Notes under the pieces: generated by a model | Databases searched by the model: none | Seen by the model: only the letters and a program-made list of their open reading frames with translations | What the model was told of the DNA's origin: nothing | Translations under genes and position numbers: made by a program | In this document: piece after piece, positions 38,142 to 58,275 of the stretch | Numbering within the stretch: the stretch's first letter is position 1 | How the letters are laid out: every line of letters begins with the position of its first letter | Origin: an uncultured bacterium | GTDB lineage: Bacteria > Planctomycetota > UBA1135 > GCA-002686595 | Length of the DNA: 64,000 nucleotides | NCBI GenBank assembly: GCA_943787795.1 | Contig: CALSNU010000001.1 | Span: 992,001 to 1,056,000 of the forward strand | Reading direction: 5' to 3'

Positions 38142-38564
38142 GGGGGCTGGCGAGGTGGCGCGAGCGGGTCGGCGCGGCCGGGGGCGCGGTGAAGCGGGAG
38201 GGGCAGTGAAGCGTGAGGGACAGTGAAGCAGAAGGGGCGGGACGCGGGGAAGCTGGGCGGGGAGCCCCCCGGCAGGGGGCTCCCCGCGCGACCCTCGCCC
38301 ACGCGGCGCCCTGGGCTCCGGGGAGCCTGGCTCGTGGGAGAAGCCCTCGGTCGGTGTCTTGTAGCCCGGGGAGAGCTGAGAGTCACCTGGGTCCAGGGGC
38401 TCTGGCCCCGCTAGACTAAGAACCGCCAGCGGCAGGGGCGCCCCGCCCCGCTGGTTCAAGGTCCGCAATGCCCGGGAAGAACCCCCGGGCCCGGGCGTCC
38501 CACCAGGGCCGCGCGGAGCCCAACCCGCGGCGCCACGGCCCCCTCACCCCGCCCCTCGACCTCG

Positions 38565-56322: not shown

Positions 56323-56633
56323 GCCACATCTGCGCGCTATCGGAGGGACGCGGGACCCCCTCGCGACGGTTTTCGATCCAAAAAACTACCGGTCTTTCTG
56401 CGGGCTGTGCGCGCATGGATAAGTGCCTTCGAATGGCTTCAGAGGGCGATTCGACGCGCTTCTGGATGAGCACGAGTTGAGATCGAAAGGCGCCTAGCGT
56501 GGCGCTGGGGGAGGAACTGTTGAACGGGCTGGTCTCGTAGCGGTACCTACTACTGACAGAGGACACTTCGAGCCATCGCTCGGCGCCCCGGCGGACCGCC
56601 TGGTGACCTCCTTGAACCTGCACCTCACTCGAA

Positions 56634-57491
56634 TTGACGCCCCAACCCGACCCCACTCCCGAGCCCGAGACGCCCCCTCGGACGTCGAGCAGCAGCGCGA
56701 CTTCCGCGGAAGCCGAGGCTGACCCGCTTGTTGAGATGGTGGACGCACTGTGGGCGGCCTTCCGATCCGAGCCGGGCGACGAGACGCGGAATGCGCTCGT
56801 CGAACACTACCAGCCGCTGATCAAGCAGATCGTTCGGCGGTTCGGAGCCCGACTCCCGCGGACCGTGGATCGCGGAGACCTGCTCACCGCGGGCAACGTG
56901 GGCCTCATCAGCGCAGTGCGCGGGTTCGACCCCGAGCGCGGGGTCCGCTTCGAGTCGTACTGCGAGCTGCGCGTGAAGGGCGCGCTCCTGGATGAGCTCC
57001 GCTCCCAGGACTGGCTGCCGCGTCCGTGGCGCCAGAAGATCGAACAGCAGAAGCGCACGGTGGAGCAGCTGCGGCGTGAGTGGGGGAGGAACCCCAACGA
57101 CAACGAGGTCGCGTCGGCGATGGGGTTCGACCTCGACGTCTACCAGCAGACCTTCGGCGTCGGGCTCCCCGGCACGCCAAGCGGGTCCATGCCCGCTGAC
57201 GACGGCGGCGAAGACGGCGGCACGGCCAGCCCCCTCGACATCGTCCAGGATCCGGGTGTGGACGCGCCGGGCGAACGGCTCTCCCGGGACGAGCTCATGA
57301 AGCTGGTCTCCCAGCGGATGTCCGATCAGGAGCGTCGCATCGTCTACCTGAAGTACTGGGAGGAGCTGCCAATGCGTGAGATCGGCGACCTCACGGGGCT
57401 CTCCGAGTCACGGGTTTGCAAGATCCACACGCGGCTCATCGAGCGTCTGCAGGATCGCTTCCGCGCGCACGAAGCCGACTCGCTGGTCTAG
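56634..57491 (+). CDS. FliA/WhiG-family RNA polymerase sigma factor (sigma-28)
   Basis: 'RNALVEHYQPL', 'GLISAVRGFDPERGVRFESY', 'GALLDELRSQDWLPR', 'EIGDLTGLSESRVCKIH'. Start may be ATG 56736. Confidence 0.93.
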   Translation: MTPQPDPTPEPETPPRTSSSSATSAEAEADPLVEMVDALWAAFRSEPGDETRNALVEHYQPLIKQIVRRFGARLPRTVDRGDLLTAGNVGLISAVRGFDPERGVRFESYCELRVKGALLDELRSQDWLPRPWRQKIEQQKRTVEQLRREWGRNPNDNEVASAMGFDLDVYQQTFGVGLPGTPSGSMPADDGGEDGGTASPLDIVQDPGVDAPGERLSRDELMKLVSQRMSDQERRIVYLKYWEELPMREIGDLTGLSESRVCKIHTRLIERLQDRFRAHEADSLV

Positions 57492-57993
57492 GCGCGCGCG
57501 GGGTCCGGGGGAAAGAGAGAGGGCCCGGCACCTCTCGGCACCGAGCCCCCCCAGGACTCCCGATCTCGAGCCACGAAGGCTCTCCGGGAACGCAAATCGA
57601 GCACGATCAGATCGCGTTCGACCCCCTTGCGTCCCGAACGGCGGAAACCGCCGGACCGAGGTGCGTAGGCGACGGAAGGGTCCCTGACCTCCCGACGTCG
57701 CACGACTCCTTATCCTCGACACCCGAACACGCCGTCCCCACGACGGCTCGGGATCCGCTCCTCCTCTCAAGAGACGCCCGTGTCCCCACACGACCGTCTC
57801 CCACATCACATCTCCCCTGACCGAAGCCGTGGGGGGACGCGAGTTCTACGGACCCGTCAGCGCCCTCGCCGCCGTGCTCCAACGAAGAGTCGCCGCTCAG
57901 CCCTGAGGCGTGACGCGGGTGGACCGTCGTGGTGGTGAAGCAAAGCATGGGAGCCGGTGGATCAGGCGGAGCCACCTCGAATCCCACCCCGGC

Positions 57994-58033
57994 AAAAGGA
58001 AACCGTCCCGGAGCCGGCCGAAGCCGACCCCGG
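57994..58033 (-). terminator. Candidate intrinsic terminator / expression platform downstream of the riboswitch
   Basis: Minus strand CCGGGGUCGGC-UUCG-GCCGGCUCCGG (11 bp, cUUCGg loop), then GACGG and UUUCCUUUU. Confidence 0.5.
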
Positions 58034-58150
58034 TCCGGAGGGCAGATGAGGAACGGTTGTTCCTATCCGACCCACGGTCCTCAGTCCGAGGCGGGACCTT
58101 TGACGGTCCCGCGGCGCTCCTCGGACGACGATCCCTATGGGTCGGGCGGT

Positions 58151-58227
58151 CGACATTCGGAAACTCGGCTGCCCGCGAGGGGCCCGTGGCTTTGCGTCCC
58201 GGACTTGCGTCCGGTTTGCCTTTGTCG
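58151..58227 (-). ncRNA. c-di-GMP-I (GEMM) riboswitch aptamer
   Basis: Minus strand CGACA-AAGGCAAA-CCGGAC-GCAA-GUCCGG-GACGCAAAGCC-ACGGGCCCCUCGCGGGCAGCCGAGUUUCCGAA-UGUCG. It shows the GGCAAAC and GACGCAAAGC signatures, GNRA-capped P2, short P3 and P1 CGACA/UGUCG. Confidence 0.93.
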
Positions 58228-58247
58228 TGTCGCCGTTGGAGCGCCAC

Positions 58248-58275
58248 AGGATAGCCAGGAAATTGCAATTGGCAA
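58248..58275 (-). promoter_or_regulatory. Candidate sigma70-type promoter for the riboswitch transcript
   Basis: Minus strand TTGCCA-N16-TATCCT, about 20 nt upstream of the aptamer. Confidence 0.5.

Follow-up and report, generated by a model that had tools for sequence, protein, structure and literature searches.

EutX/Rli55 is a small RNA that carries a B12 riboswitch at its 5′ end and sequesters the ANTAR protein EutV. In the part of its description used here (PMC5821096), the RNA acts in trans, its hairpin motifs lie in the 3′ part, and its orientation relative to the neighbor gene need not be fixed. RNAs of the CsrB/CsrC/RsmZ group repeat GGA motifs in loops and single-stranded linkers and end with a 3′ terminator (PMC7652899, in part). 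In dual-function RNAs such as SgrS/SgrT and RNAIII, a structured RNA overlaps a translated frame (PMC12612679, in part). Finally, antisense-acting riboswitches, exemplified by the S-box of C. acetobutylicum ubiG and the B12 riboswitch of L. monocytogenes pocR, are convergent with the 3′ end of a gene.

The locus described here lies in a 64,000-nt stretch of planctomycete DNA (hereafter the window), where a c-di-GMP-I riboswitch leads a predicted RNA of about 730 nt on the minus strand (about 58245 to 57511). It resembles EutX/Rli55 in its 5′ riboswitch, in the hairpin motifs of its 3′ part and in its loose tie to the orientation of a neighbor gene. However, the ligand is c-di-GMP instead of B12, 2–5 GGGGA-loop hairpins take the place of the ANTAR dual hairpin, a conserved open frame runs over the array and no conserved terminator directly follows the aptamer. 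With CsrB/CsrC/RsmZ it shares the repeated GGA motifs in loops and linkers, the terminator and a similar size. In contrast to these RNAs, its loop reads (G)UGGGGA(C), as compared to the CsrA-type CARGGAUG or RUACARGGAUGU, its stems are long, and CsrA was not found in its host order (0/151 genomes). To our knowledge, CsrB has neither a riboswitch head nor an open frame. The unit belongs to neither the CsrB nor the EutX/Rli55 class. Like the antisense-acting riboswitches, it is convergent with the 3′ end of a gene, but a terminator stops it before that gene and the unit is independent of its neighbor. We found no description of an RNA with a GGGGA array in Rfam or in papers, a search that stopped short of subscription papers and of the supplements of the motif catalogue 10.64898/2026.10.21.760802.

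The riboswitch and the limits of the transcript

The aptamer is a canonical c-di-GMP-I aptamer on the minus strand, as the original prediction had it. It matches the covariance model RF01051 (c-di-GMP-I/GEMM-I) over its full length with 65.7 bits (cut-off 35) and is the sole RF01051 match in the 85%-complete host genome. The ligand contacts G20 (58220), A47 (58193) and C92 (58160), numbered after PMC11218506 (in part), are all intact in the window and are kept in 39/39, 39/39 and 38/39 aligned homologs, respectively. The model of the c-di-GMP-I-GGC variant, RF03167, gives a higher score (68.6 bits), which we regard as a model effect because the three contacts are intact; in addition, all 39 homologs carry A at the A47 position, where the consensus of the variant model is G.

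Two traits set the riboswitch apart from RF01051: extra covarying helices enclose the aptamer, and the output downstream is probably not a protein. Three closing helices, formed between the extreme 5′ end and the segment that follows the aptamer, show compensatory changes. Over their 15 pairs, 93.5% of the alignment cells are paired and 27 cells are changed on both sides; none of 500 shuffles scored as high, and slid controls reached 24–42%. Since the closing helices use the extreme 5′ end, the transcript start is likely fixed just behind the promoter. The promoter-like site, already judged plausible in the original prediction, is kept in the 20 aligned loci as well as in four loci devoid of the aptamer. 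Equilibrium folding of 26 homologs revealed no coupling between the aptamer and the accessibility of the downstream AUG, the mean being 0.45 in all three states, and no expression platform was assigned. A tandem SAH riboswitch considered at 58128-58044 was rejected (19.1 bits, cut-off 37), its signal being explained by a closing helix. Rfam matches to symR and Ms_IGR-2 are far below cut-off, and a tRNA/tmRNA search returned none.

Table 1 Features of the riboswitch-led unit and of the convergent sigma gene in the window, in the order of minus-strand transcription
Feature	Position	Strand	Basis or remark
Sigma-70-type promoter TTGCCA-16-TATCCT with conserved spacer motif	58248..58275	minus	1 found vs 0.1 expected
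5′ end and closing helices enclosing the aptamer	58113..58247	minus	covariation
c-di-GMP-I aptamer, canonical	58155..58229 (58229>58155)	minus	RF01051 and RF03167 scores, ligand contacts
Leader hairpin with pyrimidine tail	57994..58038	minus	hairpin conserved, U-tract not conserved
AUG-led open frame, 113 codons	57607..57948	minus	open in homologs; protein sequence neutral
Array loop 1 (GUGGGGAC)	57782..57789	minus	alignment, module counts
Purine linker GGAGGAG	57758..57764	minus	alignment, module counts
Array loop 2 (GUGGGGAC)	57734..57741	minus	best module-model match in the host genome
Purine linker AAGGAG	57706..57711	minus	alignment
Array loop 3, degenerate here, one G short	57680..57686	minus	alignment
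Last G-run element, directly before the stop-codon hairpin	57622..57630	minus	alignment
Unit terminator, intrinsic (covarying GC-rich hairpin, then U-rich tail)	57511..57552	minus	alignment and rule
FliA/WhiG-like sigma factor, convergent	56634..57491	plus	TIGR02479

Alignment of 20 loci shows a conserved promoter followed by structured leader, variable middle, repeated 3′ region, terminal hairpin and U-rich tail, and the predicted RNA has a folding z of −3.4. The terminator was overlooked by the original prediction, as were the AUG-led frame and the hairpin array. Its stem varies in sequence but keeps its pairing in the 20-locus alignment; the distance from its end to the sigma stop codon is about 20 nt, and it was recovered by rule in 51/65 loci. 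In the window its tail is imperfect, with 5 U in 9. The hairpin that had been proposed as the terminator is the leader hairpin, which is followed by 7 U in 9 nt in the window. Among homologs, however, at least 5 U follow the strongest leader hairpin, the rule by which this element was picked there, in 2/52 cases as compared to 45/52 for the distal hairpin. The assignment is thus not borne out, and the leader hairpin is possibly a pause or a weak attenuator. At one locus (L022), about five tandem copies of a repeat of about 30 nt lie between the unit terminator and the sigma stop codon.

The hairpin array and the open frame that covers it

The array spans 57789-57622. Its hairpins covary among homologs and are joined by GGAGGAG linkers, and the loop consensus across modules is GUGGGGAC. 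Between AUG and terminator, 118 GGGGA-loop hairpins were counted in 51/54 loci, most of them with a GGAG 24–28 nt upstream. GGGGA is invariant in 37 aligned modules, one per locus, and all seven stem pairs show two-sided changes. The covariation score of the module stem (0.98, versus 0.25 for shuffled and 0.11–0.34 for slid controls) leans high because modules were picked for pairing. The spacing from loop to loop is often not a multiple of 3, which points to a constraint on the RNA. An Rfam scan of the array part gave no match above cut-off. As to possible target sites elsewhere in the host genome, which a decoy acting in trans might share with its partner's other RNAs, the module model found no second significant copy (other matches E >2.7), and UGGGGA hairpin loops are not enriched (35/2,903, like control loops).

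These motifs raise the question of whether the array acts by base pairing: Shine-Dalgarno-like linkers would pause or hold ribosomes through the 16S tail, or the G-rich loops would pair with C-rich RNAs, c-di-GMP setting the dose. Indeed, GGAGGAG occurs 52 times on the sense strand versus twice on the antisense strand, and 99/120 loops begin with GUG, UUG or AUG. Moreover, the host has a canonical anti-Shine-Dalgarno tail on its 16S rRNA, despite which its own starts lack Shine-Dalgarno enrichment (120/584 in a rough start set, background 20%). On the other hand, linker and loop codon are 24–28 nt apart, with a stem in between; loop codons, tried as internal starts, open frames that are not conserved; and hairpin loops with the complementary UCCCCA are not enriched in the host genome. 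We therefore consider an action by base pairing quite unlikely.

Wobble pairs bear on the strand on which the array is read. At stem positions 2–7, 39 G-U against 10 A-C favor the minus strand, whereas the two loop-closing positions go the other way (30 A-C, 23 G-U). Folding-energy asymmetry was discarded as a strand test, shuffles giving an equal value. RNA libraries were also searched: 20 runs were listed, 14 of them recorded as RNA, and four runs from four studies were compared. Contigs cover the array in all four, which attests presence only, since they give no information on strand, ends or level and the libraries may contain DNA. In two studies, contigs also span the leader hairpin. The 56706-57375 portion of the sigma gene has no contig in any of the four runs, although contigs cannot show absence.

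Two contigs bear on the possibility of a plus-strand function, in which the array would form the 3′ UTR of the sigma mRNA, with C-rich loops, anti-Shine-Dalgarno linkers and interference between overlapping transcripts. Contig X4 (57410-57633) runs across the terminator and joins its hairpin to the sigma gene. For contig X15, the adapters are oriented as expected of plus-strand RNA if the library, whose protocol is unspecified, was dUTP-stranded. The shared hairpin also lacks a U-tract on the plus strand (at most 3 A in the preceding 9 nt, 52 loci). Yet stem wobbles favor the minus strand, promoter, open frame and terminator are all on the minus strand, and the unit travels with the riboswitch and not with the sigma gene, all of which makes a plus-strand function very unlikely.

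An AUG-led frame covers the array. It was defined as starting from the first AUG after the leader and could be scored in 54 of 65 loci, 11 having no terminator by rule. It is open to the last array element in 52/54 loci, as compared to 4, 21, 20, 24 and 19 in the other five frames. Its stop codon lies 12–71 nt before the terminator in 51/54 loci (54 nt in the window). Since the rule was set after viewing the first loci, it was re-run on new ones, obtained by profile search after removal of 32 duplicates and 8 loci without terminator by rule. In this held-out set, the frame is open in 15/18 loci, versus 4, 8, 3, 9 and 7 in the other five frames; it is also open in 4/4 loci devoid of the aptamer. 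Two mis-anchored loci (L068, L086) were excluded from the stop, U-tract/wobble, start-context, C-richness, length and contact counts. Stop codons acting as a catch-all at the 3′ end were considered and rejected, only the AUG frame being enriched (54 versus 21 and 19). The context of the AUG resembles that of the host's own starts (C at −1/−2). At many loci of the family (e.g., L054, L069, L085), a 9-nt segment immediately upstream of the AUG shows complementarity to a conserved stretch about 33 codons downstream within the frame. If paired, the two would place the start codon inside a long-range helix; the genus of the window lacks this feature.

In contrast to its openness, the encoded sequence drifts. 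Across six close genomes, pN/pS is 0.93–1.30 for codons 1–40 and 0.66–1.57 for codons 41–113, whereas the sigma gene of the same genomes gives 0.02–0.07. Codons 1–40 change at the pace of synonymous sites. Codons 41–113 change far less than neutral sites, the constraint being at the nucleotide level. Among homologs, the array is read in each of the three frames (59/26/35 modules), the products range from 80 to 164 aa, and a recurring GVRP stretch is fixed as nucleotides and falls out of frame in 3 loci. No protein homolog was found among 6 candidates, and no Pfam family was matched. A weak coding signature is nonetheless seen, with a GC3 of 0.75 in codons 2–45 and less Arg than in shifted frames, so that a role of the peptide is possible.

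Taken as a whole, the frame could belong to an ordinary mRNA under riboswitch control whose product is a small, disordered and fast-evolving protein, for instance an anti-sigma partner, with hairpins that only stabilize or autoregulate the message. The fixed start and stop, the start context, the mild GC3 and composition bias and the promoter-leader-ORF-terminator layout would all fit such an mRNA. However, pN/pS values of about 1 indicate no purifying selection on amino acids, and the three reading frames, the variable length, the missing homologs and the out-of-frame GVRP stretch argue in the same direction. A small protein as the purpose of the unit thus appears unlikely. These patterns suggest selection on translation over the whole frame, with little selection on the product. 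In SgrS/SgrT and RNAIII the peptide has its own function; here, where translation is predicted, just the openness, the start and the stop of the frame are conserved. The original prediction had held that a conserved translated ORF directly downstream of the aptamer would speak against it. A frame conserved as open does stand there, but its protein sequence is not conserved.

Distribution of the unit and its relation to the sigma gene

Named relatives are Planctomycetota and include Saltatorellus ferox (79% sigma identity). The module model matched 24/41 genomes of the family and 0/109 in other families of the order; in a wider sample of the family, 76/151 genomes were positive. In a sample of 151 genomes across the phylum, one borderline match fell outside the family (L217 in G273, E 0.048). 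The unit thus appears confined to one planctomycete family. The riboswitch is single-copy in 87/90 positive genomes of the order sample and in 109/111 of the family sample. Because the homologs are kin, all these counts overstate independence. Outside the family, one locus (L048:835-1000, G027) lacks the array and has a c-di-GMP-I aptamer with a strong terminator within about 80 nt; a convergent sigma gene and ybeY lie about 3 kb away. In other genomes, extra c-di-GMP-I riboswitches (L208, L210, L212, L213) lead ORFs, whose starts, by eye, we take to resemble prepilin-type proteins.

The aptamer itself can be dispensed with. Fifteen genomes have a module match without an RF01051 match, and the four aptamer-less loci that were inspected keep promoter, AUG frame, array and terminator. 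In L197 (G091) the aptamer is cleanly gone and the flanking helix arms are kept, whereas L194, L195 and L196 (G088, G073 and G102) have just 65–90 nt between the promoter motif and the AUG. The aptamer has thus been lost and the unit kept in at least two genera, which argues for the array as the core element, usually controlled by a riboswitch head.

Downstream of the unit lies, as originally noted, a convergent FliA/WhiG-like sigma gene, whose best family, TIGR02479, scores 181.7 bits, just under the cut-off of 189.6. The gene has no AUG near its 5′ end (positions 56520-56750 of the window) and likely starts with UUG at 56634, with a variable N-terminal extension. A conserved two-part motif upstream of it, GTTGA(A/T)C and CGGTAC, may be an alternative-sigma promoter. 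Beyond it, no convincing minus-strand gene appears for about 19.7 kb, the next one having its end at 38468, in agreement with the distance first given (about 20 kb). The riboswitch thus lacks an ordinary protein target, as proposed, and a structured RNA, which the original prediction had offered as an alternative product, is what stands downstream of the aptamer.

The convergent layout recurs in relatives. The aptamer lies beside the sigma gene in 17/20 sigma loci, and riboswitch and sigma gene are at most 1.5 kb apart in 47/80 loci, on opposite strands in all. Of 20 loci of the family, 13 have unit and sigma gene directly side by side, 2 have an insert between them, and in 5 the fetched stretch, which in one case ended early at a contig end, holds no sigma gene. 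Where the sigma gene has moved away (7/20 family loci, and also L200), the architecture of the unit is intact.

These data bear on the circuit first proposed for this locus, in which ligand-dependent read-through produces an antisense RNA that silences the sigma gene. The frequent convergence and the imperfect terminator tail of the host are compatible with it, and c-di-GMP riboswitches are the class most often found antisense (152, versus 2,554 sense, in the portion of PMC9943018 considered). Nevertheless, a conserved, covarying terminator lies ahead of the sigma stop codon, loci without an adjacent sigma gene keep the unit, and 400–600 nt of conserved structure together with the open frame would be left unexplained. 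Antisense silencing of the sigma gene is therefore highly improbable.

The host genome carries three sigma-28-type paralogs, and the one in the window is the usual, but not obligate, neighbor of the unit. The sigma tree comprised 30 rows, 27 chosen loci and the three host paralogs. The flagellar-cluster sigma is the third paralog, located at the cluster end (G000:C7:78104-78781, L184; G000 denotes the host genome), and is not the gene of the window. At 18/20 loci from sister families, the riboswitch simply precedes a sigma gene as its cis leader, and the array is missing. This riboswitch-led sigma is another paralog, whose ortholog in the host (65% identity; G000:C2:30874-31563, L185) lies directly after apt without a riboswitch, the latter having been lost here with respect to the sister families. 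An inversion that would have flipped the sigma gene of the window away from its own riboswitch was discarded, since the riboswitch-led gene of the sister families is a different paralog.

A putative decoy under c-di-GMP control

The anatomy of the unit is read directly from the aligned loci; protein binding, translation and the direction of control are what we infer from it. Invariant loops repeated on stems of variable sequence form the layout of a multi-site protein decoy such as CsrB. We propose, with moderate confidence, that the riboswitch controls, from the 5′ end, a discrete RNA whose working part, the array, would act in trans as a multi-site decoy for an RNA-binding protein, following the logic of CsrB and EutX. 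The frame would send ribosomes across the C-rich spacer 3′ of the AUG and across every hairpin. Their transit may shield the transcript from Rho, strip or unfold the binding sites, or both, and c-di-GMP binding at the 5′ end would set the amount of free array in the cell. The host encodes Rho, with two Rho-like genes, as well as six GGDEF matches and a flagellar cluster.

Several known partners were searched for. CsrA was found in none of the 151 genomes of the order, in a search whose positive control gave a match; the host genome had no match even at E 10, and Hfq was not found in that genome. The ANTAR model PF03861 gave no match there, its positive control being likewise silent. Two RRM proteins are encoded in the host genome, with no tie to the array seen. 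The array would imply an RNA-binding regulator that belongs to none of the CsrA, Hfq and ANTAR systems.

More tentatively, translation of the sequence-free frame could itself be the switch: ribosomes sent by the riboswitch would turn on or off a decoy for a non-CsrA RNA-binding protein. Such an arrangement would have replaced the direct cis control under which sister families keep a sigma-28 paralog, and the motility or shape-shifting lifestyle of the family may be governed by it. If translation is indeed the switch, this would be a new kind of regulatory RNA. A fixed start and stop around an open frame with a neutrally drifting protein is an unusual and directly testable signature. More broadly, a known riboswitch here heads a previously undescribed, family-wide structured RNA, predicted to be under second-messenger control, and some of the riboswitches counted as antisense-acting (the 152 of PMC9943018, in part) may likewise head unannotated RNAs. 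The unit is also present in a cultured relative (L109), which brings experiments within reach. Elsewhere in the host genome (G000:C7:64079-66818), three tandem flagellin genes begin with (A/U)UGGGAC, which is the array loop minus one G and probably just reflects the protein N-terminus.
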